Of a stretch of DNA of 64,000 nt, positions 3,106-62,985 are shown piece after piece; position 1 is the first letter of the stretch, and each line of letters opens with the position of its first letter. The translations under genes and the position numbers were made by a program. A model generated the notes under the pieces. That model searched no databases. It saw nothing but the letters and a program-made list of their open reading frames with translations, and was not told the origin of the DNA. Origin of the DNA: Tubiluchus corallicola (taxonomy: Eukaryota; Animalia; Priapulida). The DNA lies in contig JAQGDQ010000023.1 of assembly GCA_030141605.1 (NCBI GenBank), positions 124,001-188,000 on the forward strand, in the 5' to 3' direction.

Positions 3106-3168
3106 TTGGAAGGAATAACAGATTTTTTTAATGATTTGTACATCAGACATTTGACTCAAGAAACTCAC

Positions 3169-3382: not shown

Positions 3383-3506
3383 GTAACAACGACGATATCT
3401 GGGCAACAGCAGCAGCAGCAACAACAGTGACAGCAACAGCAACAGTAGTAGCAACAGCAGCAGCTGTAGCTACAGCGATAGCAAAAGCAGTAACAGCAAC
3501 AGCAAT

Positions 3507-3545
<39 letters not shown>

Positions 3546-3830
3546 AACGACAACAACAGTGCAAACAGCAACAGCATCAACAGCAAGAACAACAATGACA
3601 ACGACGACGACGACGACGATAACAACGACAGCAGTAACAGCGACAGCAACAACGACGACGACAACAACAACAACAATAACAACAACAACAACAACAACGG
3701 CAGCAGTAGCAGCGACAGCAACAACCACAACAACAGCACCACCACCAACAACAAAAACAGCATGGAGGAGGAGAAGGAAACGAAAGAGGAGGGCAAACAG
3801 AAGCAGGAGGACGCCGACAACAACGAACAA
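3383..3830. repeat. Compound trinucleotide tract (AAC/AGC/ACG/AAT)n
   Basis: Directly visible; explains the poly-T/V/C/L ORFs. Confidence 0.95.
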
Positions 3831-4289
3831 AACCGCAGGAGTAGGCCTATATTGCACAATGCGCTTCACTGAGTTGATTTTACTTTCAATTCAATCAATT
3901 TATTCCGCATAATAAACAAATACTTATGCATCACAAGTACATTCATAAATCTAATTTTCGTTAATGATTCCAAAATTAAAATACAGTCCGTAAGTTCTGC
4001 GCTAGAGACCTAAGAAGGAAGCTTATGTTAGGCCACTAGAATTAGTAGTGAGAAAAAAATTAACAACATATTATTACTATTAGTGTGAGTTACAGTAGGC
4101 GTTAATAGTATTTCATAATTGCAATGTAAACTGATGCACGCTGATGTACACATATACATACAAATACGTATAATATATATATACAGATGGGATCTAATAA
4201 CTATATTATTATCCTGGAGGGCAAGTTGTTGAAAATGAAAAACAAAAACAAAGTCATAATTGTCATAATTGAGTGATCAGTTATATGTT

Positions 4290-5340: not shown

Positions 5341-5939
5341 AATTATGATGTTTCACGCAACTAACTTAGCGTTAAATACTAGAATAACTGCCTCATTCAA
5401 ACTTTTATATAATATAATAATAATAATTAGAAAAACAAAGCGATTATATTAAAAGCAAGCTCGATTGCAAGGCTGATAACAGAAATAAGAAACAATCAGG
5501 GCCAAAATTTTAGGAAAATTTTAGGCCACAAACCAAGTCTGGTTGTTCGAATAACTTGAACTTTCTATGCAAAATTTACTCTTTCATTTACAGCATTACT
5601 ACGTCGCATTACATTACTAATTCTTAAGTCGCGTAAAGCTGCAAATTTGCAATTTAGCAGCGCGGGATTAGTTTATACATGTGTGCAAATTCAATTTTTC
5701 TAATGTATCTTAAATCACGTTACTTGTGCTCTAGATGCAAACTGGAGAAGAGATTACTTCCGTTTTCTCACTACGTAATTGGCCTATACCTGTGAATTTG
5801 CGCAGTGTTTCCGACGAGTAATAATTGAGATTAAGCCTACCTTAATTTAAACAAGCTTGAATGAACTCAGATCCAATCCGCGAACATGCTAGTCTTTTTC
5901 ATTTGATTATACTTTGTCTAATGTGGCTTTCTCATGTCA

Positions 5940-6740
5940 AAAGCTGTGCTTATATTTTTTAAGTGTGACTACCCGGATATACGGTGCCTGGTCCAGTGCG
6001 ATTTGCTCATATGTGATTGTTGACTGAAAAGCTTTCCCAATTTTCACACTTTGGCTTTTAAACAATCGCAGCTTTTTTAACCATACCATTGTTTGAGCTC
6101 GATTTACGATTATAGTTTGAGAGTTGATGAAAACACATCTTTCAAGTAGAATGTTTATGGTAAAGTGAGCTAATGCCAGACATAAGCTAATGTCGGACAA
6201 TGAGTTTTACGTTTTTCTAAAACCCATTAAATTACCCGGACGTTGTCTTTTCCTTTCATTGTTGATACTGCCGCATCACATTTTTAGCCTGGAATATTCA
6301 CCATTGTCTAGTAGTTCGTTCTTCTGGTAGGCGTATGGTCGTGAACATACAAGCTAGTTCAGTGAGTGCGTTTATCTCTAATTGTATTAACTTTTTTGAT
6401 TTCCTGATGAACAGACATAGCGCATTAATTATTCACAGCAGTCTCTTCAGAAATGGTTTATTTTGGAAGTTACTTCTTCCCAGATGCATTCATGCCTCAC
6501 TTTGTAAAACACCATGTTTATTTAGCTATTATACAACTCACTGAAGCAGAGTCCGACTTCTCGCCGGAATTAATTGTTTGTGTAGGTAAATAACGTTGAT
6601 TTTTTTTGGCTACTTGCTCGACATTAGCCCATTTTACTCTATAACAAAAATGTTTGATTGGCCACGCACTGTGGTTTTGTCTTTTGGCTAAGTATGAGTG
6701 AATTGACAAACCCTCGTAGCCCATCATTTTGACTGCCAAT
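5940..6740 (-). mobile_element. Decayed hAT-type transposase remnant (C-terminal dimerisation-like segment)
   Basis: Across frameshifts at ~6060-6220: KTHCPTLAYV/ALAHFTINILLER/VFSS...NRAQ...LKKLRLF, resembling the hAT dimerisation pattern P.LA.VAL..L.I....ER.FS; upper boundary approximate. Confidence 0.45.
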
Positions 6741-7096
6741 CAATTTCTTTTATTTGATTTTTTTTATTTTATTTTATTTCATTTCATTTCATTTTATTTC
6801 ATTTTATTTTATTTTATTTATTTTATATTTTCCTTGCTATGCCTAAAATGTAAAAATCATTACTCTTAGCGCAACTTACATTGTTAAAGCACTCATTTAA
6901 ACAGTCCGCTTAACTATTATAACGACTCAGTGTAAACATACAAATATAGATTAAAAGCCAAAAACTATGTCAACTCTGATAACAAGATAGGCCTTTTGGT
7001 CTCGTTTTAATAATATCCAAGATTATTTGATCAATTATATGATTATCTGCCACCCAAGTAACTCTGAAGGTTCTAAGCATCTGACAGAAAACGTAC

Positions 7097-7182
7097 CTTT
7101 CTAAATCACCTGTATTTTCAGCATTCGTTGCAAGAACAATAGAAAAAAATATTGCAAATACCAAAACCCCGAGTCCTTGCAT
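7097..7182 (-). CDS. First coding exon (signal peptide) of a secreted prepropeptide
   Basis: Acceptor ttctttttgcttttttcag| at 7187, 4 nt UTR, ATG at 7182, MQGLGVLVFAIFFSIVLATNAENTGDLE(R), donor AG|gtacgt at 7096; 86 coding nt. Confidence 0.78.
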
Positions 7183-38870: not shown

Positions 38871-39319
38871 TACCTCTAATTTTAAGCAAGTCTTACCCTA
38901 TAATTAGACAGCTGATAGTGGCTTTTTCACTACACTGATGTTTTCCTCAATCCTTCTCACACTAGTACAATATCCAGCTTTCCTTTGCAACACGTACACA
39001 AGCAGCTATTAGGTTGCGCGGTTGTTAGGAAGCCTAACTTCTCTGGTTGGCTAATTACGTATGACGTCACTGAGCCTTGAGTACACTGTGCAACATAAAC
39101 TGATAAAGGTGAAGGAATGCAGGGTTTAGTTAATGCACGTGTTTCATTTATTTCAGAAAGATTGTAAAAATAATGATGATAGTTTTATATTCTTGCTAAC
39201 TGGGTGCCCATAGATTTTATAACTTGATCTTTAGAATTGATAACCGTTTGAAAGCCTACTTCACTATTGAAATTGTACGAACTGATTCATATCTGATCGA
39301 TGTTAACCCATCTAATAAC

Positions 39320-39540
39320 TGTCTCACTTTTAGCATCAATTCTACCCGGCGTCACGGATACAAATTGTTTCTGCCGCGTTGTTGTAAAATTGTAAGACAA
39401 AATAATTTGTTCGTACGTGCAATATCGTTGTGGAACGCACTACCAGAAGAATCTGTTCAGTCAAATTCACTTAAAGCTTTCAAATCTGCCTTAGACAGAT
39501 ATAATTTTAATGACAAATTGAAAATATTTCGTTAACTTGT
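39320..39540 (+). mobile_element. CR1-type LINE 3' end fragment
   Basis: TRRHGYKLF...RQNNLFVRAISLWNALPEESVQSNSLKAFKSALD. Confidence 0.8.
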
Positions 39541-39906
39541 GTATTTTTTTCAGTTAATTTGTGGCGTACTTTAGTTTTGTTTCGTGTGTGTTTTCTACTA
39601 TAACTATTTTATTTTTTTACTGCAATTCACTCTTATGCGGATTGTAATCATATGTAAAGCTCTATTTTAATTAACTAATATTTTTAATTTTAGTGTAGTT
39701 GTGTGAATACTAACTAAAGTCACAAAAAAACGCGCTGGCTGTCAAATGTGCAAATAAATTTAATAACGCTAAACTGTAAAGTGTCTTTTCCTTTGAAACT
39801 TCTAAATATATTTTACAATTGTCAGCACTTTCAAACCTAGAACGAATTTTAGCTGTAGTCAGTACTGGTGTTTCTAACTGGACAGTTGAAGAACTATAAA
39901 AAATGT

Positions 39907-39926
39907 TTTATTACCAGAAATTTATT
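39907..39926 (-). terminator. Candidate polyadenylation signals of the giant gene
   Basis: Two AATAAA on the minus strand (39907-39912, 39921-39926) ~200 nt past the stop; weak in AT-rich DNA. Confidence 0.4.
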
Positions 39927-40125
39927 ATTTTCAATAGCTATACAAATTATTTCATTTTTCACTGTACATGACACGAAACGATCCTAATATGAAAGATGAT
40001 ATGATATCTAATAAATTATCGTTGCTTAAAATAAATAATATAATTTGGACTTTATAAGTCTACATAATTTTGAATATTAAGTGAACTCGCAGCTTTCACA
40101 TAGTTGTTTCATAAGCACAAAAAAG

Positions 40126-43100
40126 TCAATCAAGATCTTGAGTATCGCGACGTCTCTTAATACATTTTTTCTGTAAAATGCAAAAAATTCCAAAGCAGCA
40201 AGCAATTGCAGCGAGATAAATCCATACAAGTTTTTTGAAAGACGGAGCTTCCTCTTCTACGGTCTCCTTTCCAGTATCATCACCAGCAAAAACTCCTATT
40301 TCTTCTAAAGAAACACATTTGATAAGTTTTGGACAATTCTTTACCTGTGCACCACAATCTGCACTTGTTAGCACACACTTTTGGCTGTTTTTTGGACAAG
40401 CAACACGTTCGCATGGAGAAGCTTTGCATTTACAGATGGGGCAAAGAGTTTCAGCATGACTCTCATACCCATGTAGGCACTCGACTGCACATTCACTGCT
40501 TACACCACAGTTAACATCTCTAGCAACGGAGCATCCAATGAAGGGTGAACCTGATGTTTGCATTGTACCTGGAATTTTCTGCCCTTCGCTTGTAACGCAC
40601 CACAATCGCTTACTATGTAAGTTAATTTGCACTGACTGATAATCACCATTACTCAAACACTGTGGCCGGTACAGTTCTTCAGACATAATTCGTGTCTCTG
40701 TTCCTGAGAGCACGTCGAAGTTTGCTTGTTCCACTTGGCAGGGAGTTAAATGCGGAGCAGAGCAAACAGAACCACAGTTTATAAAATGACAACATTTTTT
40801 CTCTGCTACGCAATCTCCGTCATTGTCACAGAAATGTCTAGGACATTGTTTAACAGTAAACGTTTCTTCACTAGGGCAACTTCCAACCTTTCTTACTTTC
40901 TCAAAAAAACATTTCGCAAGTTTTGGACACACTCCAGATCGACATTGTACATTGATGGCTTTACACTGCTGTGACGGCAGACATTTGATTTTTTTACATG
41001 GAGACGGTTTGCATTTACAAGTAGGACAAAGATTAGTCCTCTCTACTGAATAACCAAAAATACATTTCGTGGGGCAGTTTGTTTCATCAAAGTCGCATAA
41101 ACTTTGACCAGTGACCAAAGGAATTGAGCACACCTTCCCGCAACGTAAACTCTCGCAGCACAGTTCTGTTTCATTACAGTCATTATCATGGTTGCAAAAA
41201 TGTTCTTGACACTCATCAAAATAATATTCTATAGAATTCCGGCACATCCTATTACTCCGTCTAGCTTGTATACACATTGTTGCTTGTAAAAAGTCTGTGG
41301 ACAGTTTTGTTCCGGGAATAGGATAACCCTGTTTCGTAACACACCAAGCATAACCACCCCTGGTATGAAACTGGAACGGACTATATTCTCCATTGCTTAG
41401 ACACTTCGGTGGATGAACGTAATCTAGTAGGTGTGACTCTAACAGTAAGTGGTCACCATTTGCCTGCTCAACCTGGCACTTGGTAAATATTGGTATGGAA
41501 CAAATTCGGCCACATGATTTAGATGAACAGCATTTTTCTTCTGCAGGACAATCCACATCAGTGTTACATGATAATCTGGGGCACTCACTCAAAGTCAGCT
41601 TATTAGAATCAGGACAGGTGCCTACTTTGTTTCTTTGAATGTCTTCGCATCTTACAAGCGCAGGACAAGAAATGCCTCCACACTTTACAATAACTGTATT
41701 GCAAACCTGCGAACCAGGACAGACGACACCTTCACATGGAGAATGTTTACACTTACAAAAAGGACAAAGTGTCTCAGCGTCAACTGCATATCCGAAGTCA
41801 CACTTTAGACTACACTCTTTTATATTGTAAGCACATAACTGCAAGCCCGCAAGCATTGGAATTGAGCACACATTACCACATCGAGCAGACGGACAACATT
41901 TTTCTAATCCTTGACAATCTGAATCTTTGACACATTTATGAAGAGGACACTTTCTCAAGCCAATTTTGTCAATACATATGCCAGGCTTTAGTTCAAACAT
42001 TAATGGGCTATAGCAAACAGTGCCACATGTGTCCAAATAACAACATTTTTTATCTGCAGGACAGTCAATGTCATTATAGCATGATTTATTAGGACAAAAC
42101 TTATCGTCTGGGTGTAAAAACGCAGGACAAATTCCTTCTTTATTTAGCGATAACATTGAAGTAGGGCAATTAGAACTGCAGGTTTTGAAACTACAGCATC
42201 TTTTCCCTTTTGGACATTCCTCGTCACATTGGTCACCAAAACACTTTAGATTTGTACTAGATTTATCACAACCTTTGTGCTCACTCACATTAAGTACAGC
42301 TTTATTGCACGTTGTTGCACATATTTGAATATCACAACACTTTTGCTCACCAAAGCATTCAGCATGTGAAACACAAGATTTTCCTACAGATTTCTTGACT
42401 TCACATAGCTCAGAATCATTGCACACAACAAAATTATTCAAACTTAACACTGGAGTAGAACAGACACTACCACATGCAACAAAATGACAACATTTCTGGT
42501 TTGATGGACAACTGATATCATTTCTGCATGACTGAGACGGGCACTGTGCCGCACTAAAATATCCTGGTTGGTGACACAGTCCAGGTTTATTAATATTTAG
42601 TAAAGGAGTAAAACAAACATTGCCACATACATCAAAATAACAGCACTTTTGGTCTCCCAAACAATCACTGTTTGTCTGGCAAGACTGTACTGGACACCCA
42701 TCTCGTTGAGTAAATGTATCAGAATTATAACAAACCCCAGCTTTGCTTCTTGTTGCTTCACAATCAAAGGGCGGTGAGTCTGCTAGCTGCTTGGTTCCTG
42801 GAATTGGATGACCCTCTGCTGTCACACACCAAGAGTAGCCTCGGTAAAACTGCATTGCACTATAATAACCAGTACTGGAACATTGAGGTCGATAAACATT
42901 GGCAGTAAACTGATCTTGGTATTGTAATTTCAGATCAACATTTGATTGTTCTATTAAGCATGCTGTTAACACAGTAACCTGACATACCATCCCACAGGAG
43001 CTAAAATTACAACATTTTCTTGCAGGTCCACAATCAATGTCTTTATCACATTTTTTTCTGGGACACAGCTTGCCTTCAAATGCTCTAAAATCTTGACAAA

Positions 43101-46100
43101 TTCCTTTAATTTCTAATAAGTTCTTTGTATCAATCACTTGTATGAGTGTAGGCATGCACTTTCCAAGTTTTGGACAAAAAGCCATTCCACACCCCGGAAA
43201 GTCAATTGTTCTACATTCTTCTGATGGAGGACATTTGACTCCTTCACATGGCGAAGGCTTACATTGACAGGTTGCACAAAGAGTAATATTGTTCACAGCG
43301 TACCCATAAATACATGAAAGCTGACAGTCATCTAGGTTAACATCACAGGTCAATGAAGTATTATATTCAGGGTCAGTACATACCATACCACAAACATCAA
43401 AATGACAACATTTCTGTTTGTCAGGGCAATCTACATCATTGCTACAAGAATTATGTGAACAACTTCTATTGCTAGATGAGTTTGGACAAAGTCCTGACTT
43501 TACTATGGATACAATAGGCATCACACAGACACTCCCACAATCACCAATATTGCAGCACTTCTCCTCCAATGGACATTCAATGTCATTGTAACAAAACTGA
43601 GATGGGCAAGACAATTTTTTATATTTTAATGACTGAGGACAAATTCCTCGCTTGTTGACTGAGAGAATTGACTTGAAACAGACATTCCCGCAGCCAATAA
43701 AAGAACAACACTTTTCGTCATCTGGGCAATCACTGTCAACTTTGCAAAATTTGCTTGGACATTCACTGTCTCTAAGTTTTTCAAAATTGTGACAAACTCC
43801 TGGTTTAGGATCATTTGGTATGGGGTCTAAGCAAACAAAGCCACAGTGTTTGAGCCAACAGCATTTTTCTTTTTGTGGGCACTCAGTATCACTGCTACAA
43901 GACTGAGGTGGGCACATTACAATATCCACATTCTTTACATTGTAGCATATACCAGGTTTGTTTGCAGTTGTTATTAAAGGAGACGAGCAAACCCATTCAC
44001 ACTCTCTGAATCTACAACATTTTTGCAAATTTGGACAATCGATATCATTAATGCAGGTCTGCAATGGACAGTCAGTTTTTTGATAATAGTGAGGAGCCAA
44101 ACAAATGCCAGGTTTGTTCACATTCAGTAGGGGACTAGAACACACACTCCCACATTCATCATTCCAACAACATTTATCATTCACTGGGCAATCACCATCG
44201 TTGTTACACTGGTATGAACAGTTAGTAAGATCAGTATCTTGAAAACTGTAGCAAGAGCCCTTTTTGGCTGTTATTGCAGCACAGTTAGGAGAAGACGATA
44301 CTAGACTCTTTTTTGTCCCAGGAATTGGCTCTCCTTTTAAAGTTACGCACCAGAAATAACCAGTACTGTCATCTATTTGAATTTGGCTATACATGCCATT
44401 ATTATCACACTGTGGGATATACATTTCACTTGTTTTTCCAGTACTTAACAATTTGTAAAGGGCACTAGCTCGATCAACTTGGCATGCCGTTAATATAGGA
44501 GTAATGCAAATCCACCCAGAATTTTCAAAATAGCAGCACCTTTCTTCTGCTTGGCAGCTTATATCATTGTTACAAGGCTGATGCAGAGAATCATTTCTGG
44601 CGAAGCTATAGGTGTTTGGACATGTTCCAGGTTTAGTTGGAGCATCAAAACATTTTGGAAGTTTTGGACAATAATTATAATCACAGTCCAAATCTACAAC
44701 GCTACACACCTGTGACCTATGACATTTTATCCTTTTGCAAGGAGAATCATTACAGCCATAAGTAGGACACAGAGTTTCATTATGAATTTGATATCCATAA
44801 ATGCACTTTTTTGGGCAGCCTTTTTCTTTAAAATGACATTCGTTTAGCCCAAATCTTGCTGGTTGTACACATATTTTCCCACATGATAATATATTGCAGC
44901 ATTTTTGCCTGCCAAAGCAATCAACATCATTCTGACATGGCTGGCCAAAACAGTCATCATTAGGAATTTTCACGGGACAAACTCCTTCTTTTATACCAGA
45001 TAATATAGGAGTGCAGCAAACAGTGCCACAACGATTAAATACGCAGCACTTCTCTGAAAATTTGCAATCAATGTCGTTTTGGCAAGTTCGTGAAGGACAA
45101 CTACTAGCATAAAATGTATTAAAATCTGGGCAGATACCTGGATTGTTTAAAGACAGTATGGGGACAGAGCAAACATTTCCACATTCATCTGAATGACAAC
45201 ACTTTTCTCCAGCTGAACAATCAAAATCATTTTTGCACAACTGCAGTGGACACTTCGCAAAGGTTTTGATATTAGAACAAATACCTGGTGTGCTTCTTAC
45301 CATGCTGGCTGCATAACAGACATGTCCACATCCCTTGAAAACGCAGCATTTCATAGACGAAGGACAGTCAAAGTCACTGCTGCATTGTTGCTTTGGACAA
45401 TCTTTACCTTTCAACTTATTAAACACATGGCAAGTACCAGGTTTGCTCACAACTGTGATGGGGTCAAAGCAAACTTGTCCACAAGCAAAAAACTGGCAAC
45501 ACTTCTTGCTGTCTTTGCAATAAATATCATTTGTGCATGGCTGAGGTGGGCACTTCTTTCCATCGAAATAATCTGGAGGCTGGCACACTCCTGGTTTGTT
45601 AATACTTAATAAAGATGTGTGGCAAACTTTTCCACAATGCTCAGTACCACAGCATTTTTCTTCTGCTGGACAATCGACATCTGTTGCACAAGAATATTTA
45701 GGACAGCCAACGCTACTATAATTTACAATACCATGACAAATTCCAGGTTTTTCCACTAAAGCAGCACAGTCAAATGGTAACAAACCTGGTGACCTTTTTG
45801 TACCTGGTACTGGTACTCCATCTTCTGTAACACACCAAGAGAAATTTTTATGAGTTTGTGAAGGATTGTAGTCTCCATTCTTCAGGCAGAGTGGTCGGTA
45901 GATTTCTGATAAATCTTTAGTCATACTTTGCATTCTGAAATTAAATATTGTTAATTCGGTTTGGCAAGCAGACAACATAGGGGTTGCACATACAGCCTCA
46001 ATTTTCTCAAACTGACAACACTTCTCCTCTGCAGGACACTGACTGTCAACTACACAACGCTTCGGCAAACCAGTTGCGGTCATATTTTGGGGACATTTTC

Positions 46101-49100
46101 CGACTTTTGTCACAACTAAACACCTTGCCAGTTTCGGACAGAAATCACTGTGGCAGTGCACATCGACGAGAACACATTCCTCTCCTTCACCGCATTTAAT
46201 AGCATTGCACGGAGAAGGTTTGCAATTGCAAGTGGGGCAAAGTGTTTGATTATCAAATACATAACCATGTACACATTTAACTGAACAATCTTCAATAGAC
46301 ACTTCACATAACTGATGTCTAATACCAATCACTATAGAGCATACTTTTCCACAAGAAATCGATGTGCAGCACTTCTGCACACCAGGACAATCAACATCTG
46401 CATTACAGCTACGATTATTACAATCAGTAATATTAACTTTGTCAGGGCACGTGCCTGACTTTCTTACATTAAGCAATGGCTCAGAACAAACCATTCCACA
46501 ACCTGCAACTTGACAGCATTTCTGCTCCAGAGGACACTCTATGTCATTAGCACAAGCCTGAATCGGACATCTGGCAGAACTGGTGGTAAGAGTAGGACAA
46601 AGACCCGGTTTGTTTTCAGAATATATAGGCAATGAGCAAATGTTTCCACATAGCTCAGAAAAACAGCACTTTTGGTTTCCAGAACAGTCATCATCTACAA
46701 CACAGGACTCAGTAAGACATTCTCTGTTTTCGTGTTTATCATCATTGGGACATAAGCCCTTTTTATTACCAGTAAACATAGGAGTAAAACAGACTTTGCC
46801 ACAGGCCTCAAAATGGCAACACTTGTCCCGAAGCGGGCAGTCTATATCATACTTGCAGTGAGCACTTGGACATATTCTCATGTCAAATGTTTGTGAATTA
46901 TGACATAACCCTGGTTTACTTACAACTGGAAAAGGATTGACGCAGACGCTTCCACAGTGACCAAACCGGCAGCACTTTTGTGAACCGTGACAATAAATAT
47001 CATTGCTGCAAGACTGAGGGGGGCAATTACTTTCAGAGAGCATAGCTGGCTCGGGACAAATTCCAAGTTTATTAAGCGACAATAGAGGTGGAATACAAAC
47101 TTTTCCACATGCATCAAATTGACAGCAGATTTCAGATACTAAGCAGTCACTATCATTGCTACACAAGCTTGAAGGACATTTGCCCTTTTCAAAATAATTA
47201 GCTTCATAGCAAAGTTTTGCATAGTTGCCTAATGAATGACAACTTATGAGAACTGGATCATATAATTCCAACTTTTGCTTTGAACCTGGTACAGGAAAAC
47301 CGTCCTTGTCAACACACCAGAAATCACCAAGGCTTTTATTAATTTGAACAGGATTATAGTAACCCTTGTTATGGCAATTGGGCTGAAAAATATCTGTAGT
47401 TTCATTATCAAAATCTGATATTACATTCATAAGTTTGAAATTAGCTTGTTCAATCTGACAGGCAGTGAGTACTGGAGTTACACAAACTCTTTCACAGCAT
47501 CTCTCTTCTGCGGGGCATTCAAAATCATCAACACATGGCTGACCGGAAAAGGTACTATCAAACGCTGCACTTCTCCTTGGACACACTCCTGGTTTAAAAA
47601 AGTTAGAGCACTCGGCTAGTTTAGGACAAAATTTGAAGCCACAATCAACATCAACCAACTCACATTGTTGTGAAACCAAACATATTACATCTTGGCACGG
47701 AGAAGGTTTACAGTCACAAGTTGGGCACAGAGTATTATTATCTACTATATAACCATGAATGCATTTTTTAGGGCATTTATCCAAGCTAATAGAACATTTG
47801 TGCGAATCTGTGATTTGATCGAACTTACAGACAATGTACAATGATTCTGGTGACTGTTTTGATCCCGGAATTGGAATACCATTCTTGTCAACGCACCAGG
47901 AATACCCTGTTTTATGCGACTTTTGGATAGGTTTAAAGTCGCCGTTATCCAAACATTCAGAAATTACTGAAACAGAAGGTTTGAACCGAGCATTAGCATA
48001 TTCTATTTGACAAGGTGTTAATACAGGTATAACACAGGTGCTACCACATGCTGCAAAGTAGCAGCAAAGTTCCACAACTGCACACTCCCTGTCAGAAGAA
48101 CAAGTACGAACAGGACAAGAACTGCTATTTAATAATCTTGGAGATGGACAAACTCCAGCTTTCTTCACTCTCTTACACTTAGCAAGTTTTGGACAAAAAG
48201 AAGCACCACAATCAGTGTCTACAACATCACATATCTGTGATTCTCTACATTTCACACTAAAACAAGGAGAAGGTTTGCATGTACAAGTAGGGCACAATGT
48301 TTCTGGGTCATTCTCATAGCCATAGATGCAATCCTTTTGGCAACTGTAGATACTAAAGTTGCATGCACTGTTAAATGGAATGACACACACTTGGCCACAA
48401 GGAAAAATTTGGCAACACCTTTTTTCTCCCAGACAGTCAAGATCATTTCTACAAACCTGTGGAGGACATACTCTGCCATTGAAAACAGATGGACAAATCC
48501 CCGGCTTTTCACCAACTGTGACTGGTTTATAGCAAACATTACCACACTTTCTAAAAGTGCAACATTTCTCTTCTGCAGGACAGTGAATATCATTATAACA
48601 TGATGCAATCGGGCATTTTCTGAAATCGAACTCATCATATCTATAGCATATACCAGGTTTATTTATGGATAATAAAGGTTTCATGCACACGTTTCCACAC
48701 TTACTAAAGTGGCAACATTTTTCAAGTTCATAGCAGTCTGTGTCAATCGTGCACATGTTGGTGGGACACTTTATGCCATAAAAGTAATTCTCATCATGGC
48801 AAATTCCTGGTTTAATTCCCAATATCAATGGTTTATAGCATATGTTACCACACAGTGTAAAATAGCAACATTTCTCTTCAAAGGGGCAATCGATATCAAA
48901 ACTACAAAGTGTAGACGGGCAGCTTTTACCGTCAAATTCATCAGATCTGTAGCACGATCCTGGTTTCTTAGTAGATTTTAAGGGAGAAATACAAATGTGC
49001 CCACAAGTTACAAAATAGCAACACTTTTGTTGTTTTAAACAATCAACATCATTATTACATTGAGGCAAATTTTGGCATTCACTTTTATTGTATGGAGGCA

Positions 49101-52100
49101 GAATAGGGCAAATGCCTGGTTTGTTCATGTTTAGTAATGGAGTGTAACAAATCTTCCCACATGCATCAAAATAGCAACATCTCTTATCTCCTGGGCATTC
49201 ACTATCACTGCTACAAAAATGAGTTGGACACTCGCTACTTTTCAACATACTGGAACTATGACAAATTCCAATTTTATTCCTTGCAACATTACAATCATAC
49301 GGCAAGTGTCGACCTTGCCGCTTTGTTCCAGGAATTGCAATGCCATTATAGGAAACACACCAAGAAGAACTGAAAATTTCATCAAACTGTAATGGTTTAT
49401 AATGGCCATTATTCAGACATTTTGACTTGGCTAGTCTTGGCAGTTCAGCACGTGTTCCTAACATGTGTAAATTTAAATTTGCTTGTTCAATTTGGCATGC
49501 GGTCAGTTCGGGTGAAACACAGACTCTTTTACAATTACGAAAAAAGCAGCACTTTTCCTCTCCTGGACAACCTGCATCCGTTCTACAAAGCTGAGATGGA
49601 CAGCTTACTTGAAGAAATTTGTCTGATCTTGGACACTTTCCTTCCTTTACATTTTCCATGCAGCTAGCCAGGTAGGGACAAAAAAGACTCCCACATTTCT
49701 TTTTGGTTAATTTGCATGTCAGTGAACCCGGGCATATAACATTGTCACATGGAGATGGTTTACAGTCACATGTAGAGCAAAGTGTTTTAGTATCTTTCAT
49801 ATATCCAAATATACATTTCTTCTTACAGTTTTCTACACTAAATTTGCAAGATTCCTGTAAACTGCTAACTACTGATATCAAGCAAACATTTCCACAAGAC
49901 ATAGTTCTACAACATTTTTGCAGTCCAGGACAATCAATATCATCAATGCAAGACTGTGATTGACACTCAACATCATTTACAAGGTTTGGGCAAGTACCAG
50001 GCTTTACACCATGATAAAACAATTTGCTACAGATAGTTCCACATTGTGCAGAGAAGCAGCATTTCTCTTCAGAGGAGCAATCTATGTCATTGTAACAGGT
50101 CTGGTTTGGACAAGAATATCCAAAGCCAATATCTGTAAAACAAATCCCGTGCCTTTCCTCCGACAATACTGGAGAAGAGCAAACACTACCGCAAGTATCA
50201 AACCAACAACATTTTTCTTTAGCTGGACAATCCTTATCAAGCTCACAAAATCGGCTTGGGCACTCAACATTGTCAAACTTACTAGGTTCATAACAATGAC
50301 CAGGCTTATTTCCATTCATCATAGCCGCATAGCACACTTTACCACACCCATCAAAATAACAGCATTTTTGCTTATCGGGACAGTTAATATCAGTACTACA
50401 ATACTTTGAAGGACACTCTAAATTCATTAATCTACTTGTATTATGGCATCTACCTGGTTTACTCTCAATTGTAATTGGAGACACACAGACATACCCACAT
50501 GCAAAAAACCTGCAACATTTTTTCTCTCCATTGCAATCATCATCAGCAGTGCATACTGCATTTGGGCACTCACTTTTGCCAATGTAATCTGGTACTGGAC
50601 AAAGTCCAAGTTTTTTTGAGCTTAACACAATGGAAGTGCAAACCTTCCCACATGCACCAATTATGCAACACTTGTGTTCAGGTAAACAATCATTATCGCT
50701 GCTGCATGACATACGTAGATGGTCAAGTGCAGAACAATTAATGTCTGGAAAATTTTCAGTGATGTTAGGACAAATACCCGGTCTCCTTATAAAAGTACTG
50801 CAATCAGAAGGTAAAATTCCCTTTTGCCTTTTAGTTCCAGGAATTGCATGACCGGATTGCAAGACACACCAAGTGAAACCATGGGCATCATGAAATTGCA
50901 AGGGACTATAGCCTGTTTGGGAACACTCTGGTCGATCAATTCCTGGATCAACTCCTAACAAGTGAAGATCAGCATTTGCTTGCTCGATTCCACATACCGT
51001 TAATGATGAAGATATGCAACTCAAACCATACTCAGGAACAGCAGTATTCAAGCGATCAGGTAAGCACCTTGTCTGAGAGCAGGTGAGCGTATAACCTAAT
51101 AAACAATTACAACTGTAATAATTTATACCATCCACACAAGTTTCATCCTTTAAACAAGGATTAGATGCACAATCATCTATATTTGTTTCACAGTAAGTGC
51201 CTGTATAACCTAGTTGACAACTACACTTAAAAGAGTTAACAAAATTTGTACATGTTGCATCATTCAAACAATGGTTAAGGTTGCAAAAATCAATGGTTTC
51301 TTCACAATTGATGCCTGTATATCCTGAGGCACAGTTACAAACATATAAATTGATACTGTCTGTGCATATTGCACCATTCAGACAAGGTTTAGATTTACAT
51401 TCATCTATATTTATTTCGCAGTTTATACCTGCGTAACCTGATACACATATACATGTAAAGGACTGCAAACTTCCCACACAGGTTGCTCCATTAAAACACA
51501 GCCCACACTCAGAGACACTTACTGGATCCTTACAAGTTGAACCTGTATAACCGAAAGCACATATACAAGAATATGAATGTCTATTATCCAAGCATGTTGC
51601 ACCATTTAAACAAGGTTTTGAATCACATTTGCCTGTATTTAATTCACAATTGTCACCACTATAACCAGGTACACACAAGCAGTGGTAAGAATTTATACTG
51701 TCAACACATGATGCACTATTTGAACACGGACTTGAGGCACATTCATCGATATTTGTCTGACAGTAAATGCCAGTATAACCAGCAGCACATATGCATCTGT
51801 ATGAATTCACATCATCTATACACATTGCTCTATTCAGACAAGGACTTGAAACACACTCATCAATGTTTACTTCACAGGTGATGCCTATGTAACCTGACAC
51901 ACAGATGCAGTTATAAGAGTTCACGTCATCCAAACACAGCGCACTATTTAAGCATGGATTTGAGGAACACTCATCAATGTTTATTTCACAGTTGATGCCT
52001 ATATAACCTGCGACACATGTACAGTTATATGAGTTAACGTCACCTAAGCATGTTGCACCATTTAAGCATGGACTAGAGGCACATTCATCAACGTTTATTC

Positions 52101-55100
52101 CACAGTTGGCACCCGAATACCCAGCCACACATGTGCAGCTGTATGAGTTTACATCATCTAAGCACACTGCACCATTCAAGCATGGACTTGAGGCACATTC
52201 ATCTACATTTATTTCACAGGTGACACCTGAATAACCAGCCACACATGTGCAGTTATATGAGTTACCGTCACCTAAGCATATTGCACCATTTAAGCATGGA
52301 CCAGAGGCACATTCATCAATGTTTATTTCACAGTTAGTTCCTGCATAGCCTGCCACACATGTGCAGTTATATGAGTTTACATCATCTAAGCATGTTGCAT
52401 CATTTAAGCATGGACTTGAGACACATTCATCAATATTTATTTCACAGTCAATGCCTGCATAACCTGCAACACATGCACAGTTATATAAGTTTACATCATC
52501 TAAGCATGTTGCATCATTTAAGCAAGGACTTGAGGCACATTCATCAATGTTCATTTCACAGTTGATGCCTGTATAACCTGCCACACATGTGCAGTTATAT
52601 GAGTTTACATCATCTAAGCATGTTGCACCATTTAAGCATGGACTTGAGGTACATTCGTTTATATTTATTTCACAGTTGGCACCTACATAACCAGCCACAC
52701 ATGTGCAGTTATATGAGTGTACATCATCTAAGCATAGTGCACCATTTAAGCATGGACTTGAGGCACATTCATCTACATTTATTTCACAGGTGACACCTGA
52801 ATAACCAGCCACACATGTACAGTTATATGAGTTACCATCACCTAAGCATATTGCACCATTTAAGCATGGACTAGAGGCACATTCATCAACGTTTATTTCA
52901 CAGTTAGTTCCTGCATGGCCTGCCACACATGTGCAGTTATATGAGTTTACATCATCTAAGCATGTTGCACCGTTTAAGCATGGACTTGAGACACATTCAT
53001 CAATATTTATTTCACAGTCAATGCCTGCATAACCTGCAACACATGCACAGTTATATGAGTTTACATCATCTAAGCACGCTGCACCATTTAAACATGGACT
53101 TGAGGCACATTCGTCAATGTTTGTTTCGCAGTTATTGCTTGCGTAACCTGCAACACATGTGCAGTTATATGAGTTAATATCATCTAAGCAAATTGCATCA
53201 TTTAAACATGGACTTGAGGCACATTCATCAATGTTTATTTCACAGCTGATGCCTGTATAACCTGCCACACATGTGCAGTTATATACGTTTANNNNNNNNN
53301 NNNNNNNNNNNNNNNNNNNNNNNNNNNTGCAGTTATATGAGTTTACATCATCTAAGCATGTTGCACCATTTAAGCATGGACTTGAGGCACATTCATCAAT
53401 GTTTATTTCACAGTTGATGCCTGTATAACCTGCCACACATGTGCAGTTATATGAGTTTACATCATCTAAGCATGTTGCATCATTTAAGCATGGACTTGAG
53501 GCACATTCATCTACATTTATTTCACAGTTGATGCCTGTATAACCGGCCATGCATGTGCAGTTATATGAGTTTACATCATCTAAGCATGTTGCACCATTTA
53601 AGCACGGACTTGAGGCACATTCATCTACATTTAATTCACAGTTGACACCTGAATAACCAGCCACACATGTGCAGTTATATGAGTCTACATCATCTAAACA
53701 TGTTGCACCATTTAAGCATGGACTTGAGGCACATTCATCAACGTTTATTTCGCAGTTCAAACCTGTATAGCCAGCCATACATGTGCAGTTATATGAGTTT
53801 ACATCATCTAAGCATGTTGCACCATTTAAGCACGGACTTGAGGCACATTCATCAATGTTTATTTCACAGTTGTTGCCTGTATAACCTGCCACACATGTGC
53901 AGTTATATGAGTTTACATCATCTAAGCATGTTGCACCATTTAAGCACGGACTTGAGGCACATTCATCTACATTTAATTCACAGTTGACACCTGAATAACC
54001 AGCCACACATGTGCAGTTATATGAGTCTACATCATCTAAACATGTTGCACCATTTAAGCATGGACTTGAGGCACATTCATCAACGTTTATTTCGCAGTTC
54101 AAACCTGTATAGCCAGCCATACATGTGCAGTTATATGAGTTTACATCATCTAAGCATGTTGCACCATTTAAGCACGGACTTGAGGCACATTCATCAATGT
54201 TTATTTCACAGTTGTTGCCTGTATAACCAGCCACACATGTGCAGTTATATGAGTTTACATCATCTAAGCATGTTGCACCATTTAAGCACGGACTTGTGGC
54301 ACATTCGTCAATGCTTATTTCACAGTTGATGCCTGTATAACCAGCCACACATGTGCAGTTATATGAGTTTACATCATCTAAGCATGTTGCACCATTTAAG
54401 CATGGACTTGAGGCACATTCATCAATGTTTATTTCACAGTTGATGCCTGTATAACCAGCCACACATGTGCAGTTATATGAGTTTACATCATCTAAGCATG
54501 TTGCACCATTTAAGCATGGACTTGAGGCACATTCATCAATGTTTATTTCACAGTTGATGCCTGTATAACCTGCCACACATGTGCAGTTATATGAGTTTAC
54601 ATCATCTAAGCATGTTGCACCATTTAAGCACGGACTTGAGGCACATTCATCTACATTTATTTCACAGTTGAAACCTGTATAACCAGCCAAACAAGTGCAG
54701 TTATATGAGTTTACATCATCTAAGCATGTTGCACCATTTAAGCATGGACTTGAGGCACATTCGTCAATGTTTGTTTCACAGTTGATGCCTGTATAACCAG
54801 CCACACATGTGCAGTTATATGAGTTTACATCATCTAAGCATGTTGCATCATTTAAACATGGACTTGAGGCACATTCATCTACATTTATTTCACAGTTGAT
54901 GCCTGTATAACCGGCCATGCATGTGCAGTTATATGAGTTTACATCATCTAAGCATGTTGCACCATTTAAGCATGGACTTGAGGCACATTCATCAATGTTT
55001 ATTTCACAGTTGTTGCCTGTATAACCTGCCACACATGTGCAGTTATATGAGTTTACATCATCTAAGCATGTTGCACCATTTAAGCATGGACTTGAGGCAC

Positions 55101-58100
55101 ATTCATCAATGTTTATTTCACAGTTGATGCCTGTATAACCTGCCACACATGTGCAGTTATATGAGTTTACATCATCTAAGCATGTTGCACCATTTAAGCA
55201 TGGACTTGAGGCACATTCATCTACATTTATTTCACAGTTGACACCTGAATAACCAGCCAAACATGTGCAGTTATATGAGTTTACATCATCTAAGCATGTT
55301 GCACCATTTAAGCATGGACTTGAGGCACATTCGTCAATGTTTGTTTCACAGTTGATGCCTGTATAACCAGCCACACATGTGCAGTTATATGAGTTTACAT
55401 CATCTAAGCATGTTGCATCATTTAAACATGGACTTGAGGCACATTCATCAATGTTTATTTCACAGTTGATGCCTGTATAACCTGCCACACATGTGCAGTT
55501 ATATGAGTTTACATCATCTAAGCATGTTGCACCATTTAAGCATGGACTTGAGGCACATTCATCAATGTTTATTTCGCAGTTGAAACCTGTATAGCCAGCC
55601 ATACATGTGCAGTTATATGAGTTTACATCATCTAAGCATGTTGCACCATTTAAGCACAGACTTGAGGCACATTCATCTACATTTATTTCACAGTTGACAC
55701 CTGAATAACCAGCCAAACATGTGCAGTTATATGAGTTTACATCATCTAAGCATGTTGCACCATTTAAACATGGACTTGAGGCACATTCGTCAATGTTTAT
55801 TTCACAGATGATGCCAGTATAACCTGCCACACATGTGCAGCTATATAAGTTTACATTATCTAAGCACGTTGCATCATTTAAGCATGGACTTGAGGCGCAT
55901 TCATCTACATTTATTTCACAGTTGATGCCTGTATAACCGGCCACACATGTGCAGTTATATGAATTTACATCATCTAAGCATGTTGCACCATTTAGGCACG
56001 GACTTGAGGCACATTCATCAATGTTTGTTTCACAGTTGATGCCTGTATAACCTGTCACACATGTGCAATTATATGAGTTTACATCATCTAAGCATGTTGC
56101 ACCATTTAAGCATGGACTTGAGACACACTCATCTACATTTATTTCACAGTTGAAACCTGAATAGCCAGCCATGCATGTGCAGTTATATGAGTTTACATCA
56201 TCTAAGCATGTTGCACCATTTAAGCACGGACTTGAGGCACATTCATCTACATTTAATTCACAGTTGACACCTGAATAACCAGCCACACATGTGCAGTTAT
56301 ATGAGTTTACATCATCTAAGCATGTTGCATCATTTAAACATGGACTTGAGGCACATTCGTCAATGTTTATTTCACAGTTGATGCCTGTATAACCTGCCAC
56401 ACATGTGCAGTTATATAAGTTTACATTATCTAAGCACGTTGCATCATTTAAGCATGGACTTGAGGCACATTCATCTACATTTATTTCACAGTTGATGCCT
56501 GTATAACCGGCCACGCATGTGCAGTTATATGAGTTTACATCATCTAAGCATGTTGCACTATTTAAGCATGGACTTGAGGCACATTCATCCACATTTATTT
56601 CACAGTTGATGCTTGTATAACCTGTCACACATGTGCAGTTATATGAGTTAACATCATCTAAGCATGTTGCACCATTTAAGCATGGACTTGAGGCACATTC
56701 ATCAATGTTTATTTCACAGTTGTTGCCTGTATAACCTGCCACACATGTGCAGTTATATGAGTTTACATCATCTAAGCATGTTGCACCATTTAAGCATGGA
56801 CTTGAGGCACATTCATCTATATTTATTTCACAGTTGGCACCTGAATAACCAGCCACACATGTGCAGTTATATGAATGTACATCATCTAAGCATGTTGCAC
56901 CATTTAAGCATGGACTTGAGGCACATTCATCTACATTTATTTCACAGTTGACACCTGAATAACCAGCCAAACATGTGCAGTTATATGAGTTTATGTCATC
57001 TAAGCAAGTTGCACCATTTAAGCATGGACTTGAGGCACATTCATCAATGTTTATTTCGCAGTTGAAACCTGTATAGCCAGCCATACATGTGCAGTTATAT
57101 GAGTTTACATCATCTAAGCATGTTGCACCATTTAAGCACGGACTTGAGGCACATTCATCTACATTTATTTCACAGTTGACACCTGAATAACCAGCCACAC
57201 ATGTGCAGTTATATGAGTTTACATCATCTAAGCATGTTGCACCATTTAAGCACGGACTTGAGGCACATTCATCTACATTTATTTCACAGTTGACACCTGA
57301 ATAACCAGCCACACATGTGCAGTTATATGAGTTTACATCATCTAAGCATGTTGCACCATTTAAGCATGGACTTGAGGCACATTCATCAATGTTTATTTCA
57401 CAGTTGTTGCCTGTATAACCTGCCACACATGTGCAGTTATATGAGTTTACATCATCTAAGCATGTTGCACCATTTAAGCATGGACTTGAGGCACATTCAT
57501 CTACATTTATTTCACAGCTGACACCTGAATAACCAGCCACACATGTGCAGTTATATGAGTTTACATCATCTAAGCATGTTGCACCATTTAAGCATGGACT
57601 TGAGGCACATTCATCAATGTTTATTTCGCAGTTGAAACCTGTATAGCCAGCCATACATGTGCAGTTATATGAGTTTACATCATCTAAGCATGTTGCACCA
57701 TTTAAGCACGGACTTGAGGCACATTCATCTACATTTATTTCACAGTTGACACCTGAATAACCAGCCAAACATGTGCAGTTATATGAGTTTACATCATCTA
57801 AGCATGTTGCACCATTTAAGCATGGACTTGAGGCACATTCTTCAATGTTTGTTTCGCAGTTGATGCCTGTATAACCTGTCACACATGTGCAATTATATGA
57901 GTTTACACCATCTAAGCATGTTGCACCATTTAAGCATGGACTTGAGGCACATTCATCAATGTTTATTTCACAGTTGATGCCTGTATAACCTGCCACACAT
58001 GTGCAGTTATATGAGTTTACATCATCTAAGCATGTTGCACCATTTAAGCATGGACTTGAGGCACATTCGTCAATGTTTGTTTCACAGTTGATGCCTGTAT

Positions 58101-61100
58101 ACCCAGCCACACATGTGCAGTTATATGAGTTTACACCATCTAAGCATGTTGCACTATTTAAGCATGGACTTGAGGCACATTCATCCACATTTATTTCACA
58201 GTTGATGCCTGTATAACCAGCCACACATGTGCAGTTATATGAGTTTACATCATCTAAGCATGTTGCATCATTTAAACATGGACTTGAGGCACATTCGTCA
58301 ATGTTTATTTCACAGTTGATGCCTGTATAACCTGCCACACATGTGCAGCTATATAAGTTTACATTATCTAAGCACGTTGCATCATTTAAGCACGGACTTG
58401 AGGCACATTCATCTACATTTATTTCACAGTTGATGCCTGTATAACCGGCCACGCATGTGCAGTTATATGAGTTTACATCATCTAAGCATGTTGCACCATT
58501 TAAGCATGGACTTGAGGCACATTCGTCAATGTTTGTTTCACAGTTGATGCCTGTATAACCTGCCACACATGTGCAGTTATATGAGTTTACATCATCTAAG
58601 CATGTTGCACCATTTAAGCATGGACTTGAGGCACATTCATCAATGTTTGTTTCACAGTTGATGCCTGTATAACCTGCCACACATGTGCAGTTATATGAGT
58701 TTACATCATCTAAGCATGTTGCACCATTTAAGCATGGACTTGAGGCACATTCATCTACATTTATTTCACAGTTGATGCCTGTATAACCGGCCATGCATGT
58801 GCAGTTATATGAGTTTACATCATCTAAGCATGTTGCACCATTTAAGCACGGACTTGAGGCACATTCATCTACATTTATTTCACAGTTGACACCTGAATAA
58901 CCAGCCAAACATGTGCAGTTATATGAGTTTACATCATCTAAGCATGTTGCACCATTTAAGCACTGACTTGAGGCACATTCATCTACATTTATTTCACAGC
59001 TGACACCTGAATAACCAGCCACACATGTGCAGTTATATGAGTTTACATCATCTAAGCATGTTGCACCATTTAAGCACGGACTTGAGGCACATTCATCTAC
59101 ATTTATTTCACAGTTGACACCTGAATAACCAGCCAAACATGTGCAGTTATATGAGTTTACATCATCTAAGCATGTTGCATCATTTAAACATGGACTTGAG
59201 GCACATTCGTCAATGTTTATTTCACAGTTGATGCCTGTATAACCTGCCACACATGTGCAGCTATATAAGTTTACATCATCTAAGCATGTTGCATCATTTA
59301 AGCACGGACTTGAGGCACATTCATCTACATTTATTTCACAGTTGATGCCTGTATAACCGGCCACGCATGTGCAGTTATATGAGTTTACATCATCTAAGCA
59401 TGTTGCACCATTTAAGCATGGACTTGAGGCACATTCGTCAATGTTTATTTCACAGTTGATGCCTGTATAACCAGCCACACATGTGCAGTTATATGAGTTT
59501 ACATCATCTAAGCACGTTGCACTATTTAAGCATGGACTTGAGGCACATTCGTCAATGTTTATTTCACAGTTGATGCCTGTATAACCTGTCACACATGTGC
59601 AGTTATATGAGTTTACATCATCTAAGCATGTTGCACCATTTAAGCATGGACTTGAGGCGCATTCATCTACATTTATTTCACAGTTGATGCCTGTATAACC
59701 TGCCACACATGCGCAGTTATATGAGTTTACATCATCTAAGCATGTTGCACCATTTAAGCATGGACCTGAGGCACATTCATCAATGTTTATTTCACAGTTG
59801 ATGCCTGTATAACCTGCCACACATGTGCAGTTATATGAGTTTACATCATCTAAGCATGTTGCACCATTTAAGCACGGACTTGAGGCACATTCATCTACAT
59901 TTATTTCACAGTTGACACCTGAATAACCAGCCAAACATGTGCAGTTATATGAGTTTACATCATCTAAGCATGTTGCACCATTTAAGCATGGACTTGAGGC
60001 ACATTCATCAATGTTTATTTCACAGTTGATACCTGTATAACCAGCCACACATGTGCAGTTATATGAGTTTACATCATCTAAGCATGTTGCATCATTTAAA
60101 CATGGACTTAGGCACATTCCGTCAATGTTTATTTCACAGTTGATGCCTGTATAACCTGCCACATGTGCAGTTATATGAGTTTACATCATCTAAGCATGTT
60201 GCATCATTTAAGCATGGACTTACACATTCATCTACATTTATTCACAGTTGATGCCTGTATAACCGGCCACACATGTGCAGTTATATGAGTTTACATCATC
60301 TAAGCATGTTGCACTATTTAAGCATGGACTTGAGGCACATTCATCCACATTTATTTCACAGTTGATGCTTGTATAACCTGTCACACATGTGCAGTTATAT
60401 GAGTTTACATCATCTAAGCATGTTGCACCATTTAAGCATGGACTTGAGGCACATTCATCAATGTTTATTTCGCAGTTGAAACCTGTATAGCCAGCCATAC
60501 ATGTGCAGTTATATGAGTTTACATCATCTAAGCATGTTGCACCATTTAAGCACGGACTTGAGGCACATTCGTCTACATTTAATTCACAGTTGACACCTGA
60601 ATAACCAGCCAAACATGAGCAGTTATATGAGTTTACATCATCTAAGCATGTTGCACCATTTAAGCACGGACTTGAGGCACATTCATCTACATTTATTTCA
60701 CAGTTGATGCCTGTATAACCGGCCATGCATGTGCAGTTATATGAGTTTACACCATCTAAGCATGTTGCACTATTTAAGCATGGACTTGAGGCACATTCAT
60801 CCACATTTATTTCACAGTTGATGCTTGTATAACCTGTCACACATGTGCAGTTATATGAGTTAACATTATCTAAGCATGTTGCACCATTTAAGCATGGACT
60901 GGAGGCACATTCATCAATGTTTATTTCGCAGTTGAAACCTGTATAGCCAGCCATACATGTGCAGTTATATGAGTTTACATCATCTAAGCATGTTGCACCA
61001 TTTAAGCATGGACTTGAGGCACATTCATCAATGTTTATTTCGCAGTTGAAACCTGTATAGCCAGCCATACATGTGCAGTTATATGAGTTTACATCATCTA

Positions 61101-62355
61101 AGCATGTTGCACCATTTAAGCACTGACTTGAAGCACATTCATCTACATTTATTTCACAGTTGACACCTGAATAACCAGCCAAACATGTGCAGTTATATGA
61201 GTTTACATCATCTAAGCATGTTGCACCATTTAAACATGGACTTGAGGCACATTCATCAATGTTCGTTTCACAGTTGATGCCTGTATAACCGGCCACACAT
61301 GTGCAGTTATATGAATTTACATCATCTAAGCATGTTGCACCATTTAGGCATGGACTTGAGGCACATTCATCAATGTTCGTTTCACAGTTGATACCTGTAT
61401 AACCTGTCACACATATGCAGTTATATGAGTTTACATCATCTAAGCATGTTGCACCACTTAAACATGGACTTGAAGCACACTCATCTGTGTTTGTTTGGCA
61501 CCTAGTTCCCTCGTAACCAGAAAAACAAGTACAAGCATAGTAACCAAACCCATTAGTACAATCCCCATGAAGGCAAGGATTTGAATTACACTCATCGAGT
61601 GAATCTGTTTCGCACCACTGTCCAGTGACACCTGCTAGACAGGCACATATAAATGAACCAGGAATGTTGGTACATGTTCCATTATGTAAACATGGTTCCC
61701 ATACACACTCATTGAAATCTGTTTCACAATAGAAGCCTGTAAAACCCAGTTCACACTGGCACAAATAGACGCCTAAAAAATTGTTTGGATTTGTCCCGCA
61801 TGTACCATTTTGGCACATGTTATTGATACATGGATCCCCTCTTACAGATGGTACAGAAGTGACCCAAAATTCAAATCCTGTATGGCTGGTGTGTACACCA
61901 TCTGTCTGAAATCTTGTGTGAATATAGCCAACCGCTTTGTCCTTTGTTACATACCTCGTAAAAGGTGTTCCATAATGCTCACAAACCTGTTCATCCCACA
62001 CAACTGGATCACCATGTCCTATCTCAATATATTCATTAGGGCAGGCAAGATCTAACTTTATAAATCGAAGCAGGTAAAGGTTATACTTTGGTCCTGTATC
62101 ATTAGGGTATGAAAATCTGATGTAATTAAAACAGTTATGAGCAGGTACATTTTCGTAATTGCCAGGGGGTGAAGATATGACTGTTGCACCTAATTCTGTT
62201 GTCAGAATATTATCGGATTTATTATTTTTAAATACTGTCGAGCACATTTTCTGAAGAGGATAATATGGCCACGATAATGCATATATTACATTTACTGGAG
62301 AGTAGCACAAAAGTAAGTTAAACAGTAATCCAAAGTATTTATGTTGACTTAACAT
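40126..62355 (-). CDS. Giant single-exon type I membrane protein: SP-CUB-(cbEGF)~94-[TY/WAP/antistasin-like]x9-TM, ~7,400 aa
   Basis: ORFs 60238-62355 and 40126-60162 are in the same frame and joined by continuous EGF repeat sequence with compensating indels; signal peptide [26 protein letters not shown]; domains recognised from Cys spacing and motifs; terminal TM with basic stop-transfer residues. Confidence 0.92.
40174..40230 (-). other. Transmembrane helix followed by a 15-aa cytoplasmic tail
   Basis: [36 protein letters not shown]. Confidence 0.8.
40315..51000 (-). repeat. Nine protein super-repeats of TY-(WAP)6-antistasin-like-6Cys-WAP (six full, three shortened)
   Basis: TY: C.IEQ...P.C...G.Y...Q....WCV...G..IPGTK; WAP: KPGxCP..C..C..DxDC...KCC...CGxVC; antistasin-like: C...C.(Y/F/H)GY.....LCPTC.CKPSPC. 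Confidence 0.9.
51079..61836 (-). repeat. Tandem array of ~94 calcium-binding EGF repeats (114 bp / 38 aa)
   Basis: Consensus [38 protein letters not shown]; count is span divided by 114. Confidence 0.97.
53292..53327. other. Assembly gap (36 N) inside the EGF array
   Basis: Directly visible. Confidence 1.
61850..62245 (-). other. Divergent CUB domain
   Basis: C...ISSPPGNY...[28 protein letters not shown]...TGF motifs with four Cys. Confidence 0.75.
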
Positions 62356-62829: not shown

Positions 62830-62985
62830 CAGGATTTGCATAACCTGAAATACATACATGTGCAATTACAGGAAAGTGTGACATCGAAACATACATGTTG
62901 CACCATGTAAACAGGGACTTGGAGCTCATTCATCAATGTTCTTTTCATAGCAGATGCCTTTATAACCTGCAATACATGTGAATCA
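62830..62985 (-). pseudogene. Decayed EGF-repeat coding remnant upstream of the giant gene
   Basis: Reads FTCIAGYKGICYEKNIDE*APSPCLHGATC, then frameshifted CNCTC and CISGYA. Confidence 0.75.

Follow-up and report, generated by a model that had tools for sequence, protein, structure and literature searches.

The 64,000-nucleotide (nt) stretch of the priapulid Tubiluchus corallicola analysed here (contig JAQGDQ010000023.1 of assembly GCA_030141605.1, positions 124,001 to 188,000, hereafter the window) carries on its minus strand about 22 kb of intron-free coding DNA, predicted to encode a single-pass cell-surface glycoprotein of about 7,400 residues. The predicted coding sequence is likely one exon of this length, and the explanation favoured as a whole, at a probability of roughly 55%, is that a real predicted gene lost its introns and then grew by tandem copying within the exon, a break in its frame being an assembly error. 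A preliminary description of the same DNA had reported a frame running uninterrupted from signal peptide to membrane helix; the single frame, the signal-like N-terminus and the helix are all present, but six in-frame stop codons and a gap of 36 N lie within it, and that account mentioned neither the break, nor the gap, nor the pairing of a multi-copy body with a single-copy head. The gene is real and unusual, but was overstated as an unbroken frame.

The predicted coding sequence runs from an ATG at 62355 to a TGA at 40126, 7,409 codons in one frame with the interrupted stretch included, and intron-free status here refers to this sequence, ATG to stop, at the DNA level only. Stop to stop, it comprises open reading frames (ORFs) of 710 and 6,684 codons in the same frame, separated by the six stops; the runs free of both stops and gaps measure 13,166, 6,853 and 2,118 nt, the longest certain run thus being 13.2 kb. 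In the non-coding DNA of the window there are 0.063 stops per triplet, at which rate 300 nt would stay open by chance with P ~0.0015, so a chance origin of the long open runs is excluded; an in-frame intron of 60-90 nt could stay open with P 0.27-0.14. Strong donor and acceptor patterns number 0 and 0 in the ORF versus 3 and 4 in 40 kb outside it. Furthermore, cysteine makes up 14% of the residues and the longest cysteine-free stretch spans 51 residues. By stop rate, splice patterns and cysteine spacing, neither room nor a signal for a genuine intron was found in the ORF. CT..AC ends were seen at 0 of the 14 contig joints in the read-run comparison, which, coming from DNA runs, are uninformative on splicing.

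The front half (Table 1) begins with a predicted signal peptide whose hydrophobic core is moderate (mean Kyte-Doolittle (KD) value 1.6 over residues 9-27). CUB was the top match of the following head in the ESM Atlas (score 0.90, a lead only); the head matched nothing in Pfam or the PDB, protein searches with it gave no match, and its single-sequence structure model had a predicted local distance difference test (pLDDT) score of 29. Three EGF units next to the head are 60-78% identical to the consensus of the array behind them over their aligned parts. By pattern, 87-90 EGF units are recognised, plus damaged ones; the Pfam scan covered the array on either side of its middle (~60.2-53.3 kb), which is made of the same 114-nt EGF unit, and Tandem Repeats Finder (TRF) gave 83% matches in the array tail over 51712-53291. 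Lag identities across the array lie at 0.917-0.931, with no sign of a higher-order period. Not one of 474 cysteine positions is lost across 79 array units, and array alleles comprise 43 of 71 possible synonymous versus 54 of 271 non-synonymous changes (Fisher P 2e-10); the array is under purifying selection. Of 87 units, 75-84 carry the consensus motifs for calcium binding and Notch-type O-glycosylation, and 73 have N-glycan sequons.

The rear half consists of nine super-repeats, in which Pfam marks 40 WAP and 8 TY stretches and motif counts give 9 WCV, 9 antistasin-like and 46 CC; the Pfam antistasin matches lie below that model's cut-off (E 0.019 and 0.0083). At E 1e-20, self-BLAST returned no protein repeats for the rear half, whose modules were instead compared one by one; the ESM Atlas gave no usable match with a rear module. 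The nine super-repeat cores, all intron-free, are 33-49% identical pairwise, from which it follows that the super-repeat expansion is old and the EGF expansion young or homogenised.

The relatives of the rear half are remote. Its last 1,124 residues gave 307 matches against 1.84 billion representatives, all distant, headed by single-domain repeat proteins from fish and frogs; among these matches, the module order is shared by arthropod and nematode proteins of the TY-antistasin-WAP-lustrin-Kunitz type. Protein searches gave no match among proteins of 3,664-11,661 residues and two distant ones among longer proteins, and metagenome scans found nothing. All 10 family proteins tried matched a profile of the nine antistasin-like modules, the lowest E being 2.8e-13 (Z=1000). 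To judge from these matches, the rear half is derived from the arthropod and nematode TY-antistasin-WAP membrane family (RefSeq 'balbiani ring protein 3-like', Plutella PxSPI44, Necator P0002), which has the same repeating cassette of TY, antistasin, cysteine-rich linker and WAP. A C-terminal membrane helix is found in 7 of the 10 members checked, and the window protein likewise has WAP modules and a C-terminal helix. Drosophila CG5639 also belongs here by its domain layout; the literature, in the parts available, lists it merely as a peptidase inhibitor or serpin. Meanwhile, the window protein has no Kunitz or lustrin match in Pfam, whereas the family proteins scanned have lustrin in 9/9 and Kunitz in 7/9, making it a derived relative rather than a canonical member; it also has up to 6 WAPs per cassette, some 90 added EGFs and a CUB-like head, and is 3-5 times longer. 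A WAP-antistasin thyropin group has been described across arthropods, according to the available part of PMC3407033.

The fusion of EGF to WAP/TY modules appears to be shared. In the Logan protein P0042 (a 1,127-nt contig), EGF-EGF-WAP-TY stand in one ORF; it is the best match for 9/9 WAP-TY cassettes among the 231 proteins compared, and its architecture indicates that the fusion is common to a relative at ~40% identity. Both ends of P0042 read like translation into intron, so one multi-domain exon of ~700 nt from a related gene may be represented.

Four read runs contain part of the stretch, none of them on record as RNA, and a run X6, RNA by guess, gave 0 records, neither of which bears on expression; depth was taken from contigs and is no true copy number, and the run called X2 may be the assembly's own sample. 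In X2 a single contig spans the 5' end of the gene (61495-63608) with 0 differences; its depth of 188 resembles the 167-179 of other unique contigs. A second run, X1, extends over the non-coding DNA upstream, where its depth is 5-8, and therefore behaves as DNA. The rear-half contigs listed mostly differ from the window by ~1.5-7%, at 6.4-10.1 times the unique depth in X2 (6/8 listed pieces) and 2.8-7.4 times in X1 (5/7 listed); this comparison did not include the two pieces of X2 from the flank, at depths of 167 and 200, or a pair from X1, one at depth 12.5 with 0 differences and one at depth 6.6 with 29. These figures hint that the rear half and its 3' flank exist in roughly 3-10 near-identical copies and the head in one. 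Since unique DNA shows near-zero differences, the extra contigs are taken as paralogues, not alleles, and paralogous X1 contigs are colinear with the window for up to 1,578 nt without gaps. Depth climbs from ~38945, so that the multi-copy part reaches ~1.2 kb past the stop, beyond the first polyadenylation signals (39926 and 39912). A decayed reverse-transcriptase-like fragment of a long interspersed nuclear element (LINE), recognised by eye in translations at 39200-39535, falls within this common flank. Of 684 listed differences 40 were examined, 36 of them coding: 12 are synonymous and 24 non-synonymous, and none removes a cysteine (P 0.016). Indels are multiples of 3 in 2/2 coding and 0/10 flank cases (12 of 40 rows examined). 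X1 and a further run, X4, each contain 75 nt with ~85% similarity to the head, hinting at another head.

The scaffold gap lies inside the EGF array and misfits its phase: by that phase, the two sides should stand -18, 96, 210... nt apart and not 36. Both the length of the array and the join of head to body therefore rest on scaffolding. Adjoining the gap, a 335-nt exact repeat (window 53886-54228, 342-nt spacing, three units) is either a very recent duplication or an assembly artefact. The 22-kb gene might accordingly be a scaffolding chimera, in which a unique head with the first array and a multi-copy body from different family members were joined over the gap. Such a join would suit the out-of-phase gap within a repeat, the exact repeat just before it and a head at unique depth beside a body at 3-10 times that depth, but is considered unlikely: one unit family stands on both sides of the gap, divergence grows towards the array edge as for one array, and even a chimera would leave each half an intron-free run of 7-13 kb.

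How such an exon arose is best approached through the family. According to the available part of PMC5309989, the moth protein PxSPI44 is encoded by 22 exons in 11,948 bp for 1,441 residues, whereas the window coding sequence has no introns; for this reason introns were probably lost in the lineage of the gene. The N-terminal sequence printed for PxSPI44, as far as that source shows it, has the same module as Photinus P0172, and Photinus isoforms differing by 2 residues merely hint at splicing. A routinely intronless family would have told against intron loss, but PxSPI44 shows, for the distant ecdysozoans to which the comparison extends, that the family is not routinely intron-free. The preliminary description had stated that EGF modules are commonly separated by introns, and this agrees with the consulted part of PMC1553488, in which EGF linkers are enriched in exon junctions, EGF domains are usually exon-bordered and repeat expansion inside large exons is established. 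Its proposal of intron loss followed by expansion within the exon is supported by the 22-exon moth relative, the usual bordering of EGF domains, the 114-nt tandem array and the intron-free super-repeats. In the sequence of events proposed, an ancestral TY/antistasin/WAP membrane gene of this lineage would have lost its internal introns, probably via recombination with cDNA, and gained intron-free EGF units; an intron-free super-repeat would have been copied nine times, long ago; one 114-nt EGF unit would then have grown to ~80 copies, minisatellite-like, by unequal crossing-over; and the body with its 3' flank would have been duplicated as DNA into several near-identical copies, which fits the extension of the multi-copy part beyond the first AATAAA signals.

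Whole-gene retroposition, the other origin proposed in the preliminary description, is not supported. The gene would then be a retrocopy of a whole, already long mRNA, in line with the absence of introns from ATG to stop, old super-repeats included, and with LINE-type reverse-transcriptase fragments in the window. The genomic DNA shows no poly(A) tail, its longest A-run being 7, and in place of a convincing target-site duplication the flanks have just short (11-12 nt) AT-rich matches; old retrocopies lose both marks, so their absence only weakens the rival. The shared region also runs past the first polyadenylation signals and the paralogues seen are likewise colinear without introns, leaving a retrocopy distinctly unlikely.

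The frame break itself has an unusual form. In alignment to intact units, its six indels, confined to ~140 nt, sit at runs of a base or dinucleotide and are accompanied by few substitutions, and 78 of 80 array unit spacings are exactly 114 nt, the two exceptions being the break and the 36-N gap. The rough probability of such clustering is ~6e-8, and because it is so improbable the break is read as likely an assembly error, in a low-quality stretch of the assembly. If the break were real, this copy would make a 705-residue secreted CUB-EGF protein and the remainder would be a recently dead paralogue; the stops are present in the sequence, among the differences between the window body and the majority copies, synonymous ones have a nearly neutral share, and spare copies would relax selection. 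This is nevertheless improbable, as six frame-restoring indels in ~140 nt, with no other array indel, are very unlikely as mutations, 20 kb downstream carries no stop and the array has lost no cysteine. Highly improbable is that the damaged unit is a young intron or that short in-frame introns hide in the ORF: excision at any of 30 in-frame GT/GC..AG pairs within 60100-60400 would take out the stops, in some cases (for example 60263..60156) leaving a clean repeat, but the same dinucleotides recur in intact units, a fraction of 0.42-0.47 of the bases ahead of the AG are pyrimidines, whereas a small gene elsewhere in the window has true acceptors that are T-rich, and one +1/-1 indel pair stays downstream of the formal excisions.

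Several points weigh against intron loss with expansion and an assembly error at the break. The frame is interrupted in the assembly as it stands, and its stops could formally be excised by the 30 splice-like pairs. The gap size is wrong, so that head and body might come from different copies. Intron loss rests on distant ecdysozoan homologues, as no intron-bearing paralogue from the same species was encountered, although no search for paralogues was made, and the head is assigned to CUB only tentatively. Finally, the synonymous share of the copy variants (12/36) is not above the neutral expectation (27%, P 0.25), and the absence of stops among the 36 is alone not significant (P 0.27).

Membrane mucins offer one close parallel, and the protein would act like a tethered mucin of MUC16 type, coating the surface for protection or adhesion. 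The EGF rod, glycosylated, stiffened by calcium and ~250 nm long if straight by its unit lengths, would keep a CUB-like binding head at a distance from the cell, over a disulfide-rich base of protease-inhibitor-type modules. The giant repeat-bearing coding stretch and the single predicted membrane helix are present in the DNA, apart from the break and gap. The repeat exon of MUC16 is roughly 21 kb. MUC12 is likewise a huge single-pass glycoprotein that owes its length to tandem repeats within one exon; according to the accessible part of PMC13345508, human MUC12 proteins reach 23,080 residues and no human exon is larger than the one with the MUC12 repeats. To call the window exon exceptionally long is therefore fair, but it is no record, since a larger coding exon is already known in MUC12. 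Two differences from the mucins are that the repeats here are folded disulfide domains (EGF, WAP) rather than Ser/Thr/Pro tracts, and that the whole coding sequence lacks introns, whereas in mucins only the repeat region does.

The front resembles other EGF rods. Notch, fibropellin and Crumbs are built of 38-residue units with calcium-binding and O-glycosylation consensus sites, as are most units of the window protein, and fibropellin has a CUB plus EGF layout like its front; the window units differ in being ~92% identical and intron-free. No LNR, ankyrin, laminin-G or avidin domain was found by Pfam in the parts scanned. Lottia shell-matrix proteins (Lotgi1|201804 and |239125) likewise have WAP arrays split by antistasin-like domains, but are 85-103 kDa, and the part of PMC3374290 at hand mentions no EGF rod, TY domain or membrane anchor. 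No paper on this architecture or on giant EGF exons with these domains was found in the literature covered, most subscription journals lying outside that coverage.

Should long reads bear it out, few coding exons built from folded extracellular domains would be longer, and modules known from textbooks for exon shuffling (EGF, CUB, TY) would clearly have multiplied without introns; if it fails, it becomes a caution on tandem arrays and sized gaps in draft assemblies. With its unique head and multi-copy body, the gene also lends itself to tests of whether giant surface receptors undergo concerted evolution or head swapping. A fairly unlikely extension is a set of lineage-specific giant single-exon receptors, with a homogenised 11-kb protease-inhibitor-like body in several copies and unique heads swapped by recombination in the EGF array; such a set, if real, would amount to a recognition system with variable tips that had arisen without exon shuffling. 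Under head swapping, the place where the CUB-like head entered an existing array would be marked by a decayed array unit that lies upstream of the ATG. This unit shows 77% identity over 87 nt (E 4.5e-14) and, against the array consensus, 80% over 124 nt, closer than the gene's own head EGFs (60-78%), and falls within the X2 contig with 0 differences.

Table 1. Features of the giant gene, its flanks and the comparison gene (window positions).
Feature	Position	Strand	Basis or remark
Decayed EGF-array unit, ~500-630 nt upstream of the ATG, same orientation	62850..62985	-	similarity to array
Start codon and predicted signal peptide (residues 1 to ~27)	62275..62355	-	first ATG of 710-codon ORF
CUB-like head, tentative; single-copy at at least 85% identity	61840..62244	-	ESM Atlas; X2 contig
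Three diverged EGF units	61480..61830	-	Pfam EGF
Core EGF array, calcium-binding type, 114-nt period, ~72 copies, 92% matches	53328..61479	-	TRF
Frame break	60105..60240	-	six indel events, net -6 nt, six stop codons at 60240-60183
Scaffold gap, 36 N, inside EGF array	53292..53327	.	size misfits repeat phase
More diverged EGF array tail, ~19 units	51078..53291	-	Pfam EGF, 19 stretches
Nine super-repeats: TY (thyroglobulin-1), up to 6 WAP, antistasin-like and cysteine-rich modules	40315..51077	-	Pfam, motifs
Predicted single transmembrane helix (residues 7376-7394)	40174..40230	-	mean KD 2.6
Basic cytoplasmic tail, 15 residues, and stop codon	40126..40173	-	translation
3' flank common to extra copies; first AATAAA/ATTAAA signals 39926, 39912; no poly(A) tail	38945..40125	-	depth, indel-bearing variant contigs
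Comparison gene, small secreted-type peptide (signal peptide, then helical stretch)	3169..7182	-	ATG 7182

The small gene with a 3.8 kb intron, which the preliminary description had set beside the giant exon, is real, its GT-AG intron (7096..3259) measuring 3,838 nt with 75-87 stops per frame. An acceptor just before its ATG probably belongs to an intron in the 5' untranslated region, and a second donor lies at 3168, for which a third exon was not found in the window. Elsewhere, a 24-nt tandem array at 27287-28903 has 67 copies with 94% matches and stays open over ~550 codons of either strand; it is probably a non-coding minisatellite. A high-copy interspersed repeat at 63570-63780, ~1.2 kb upstream of the giant gene's ATG and represented by many variant contigs with loose ends, possibly resembles a short interspersed nuclear element. 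Besides the fragment in the 3' flank, decayed LINE reverse-transcriptase-like fragments were recognised by eye in translations at 4590-5342 and 10945-11961, and a minus-strand fragment at 12586-12930 resembles what we take to be a Penelope-type retroelement ORF.

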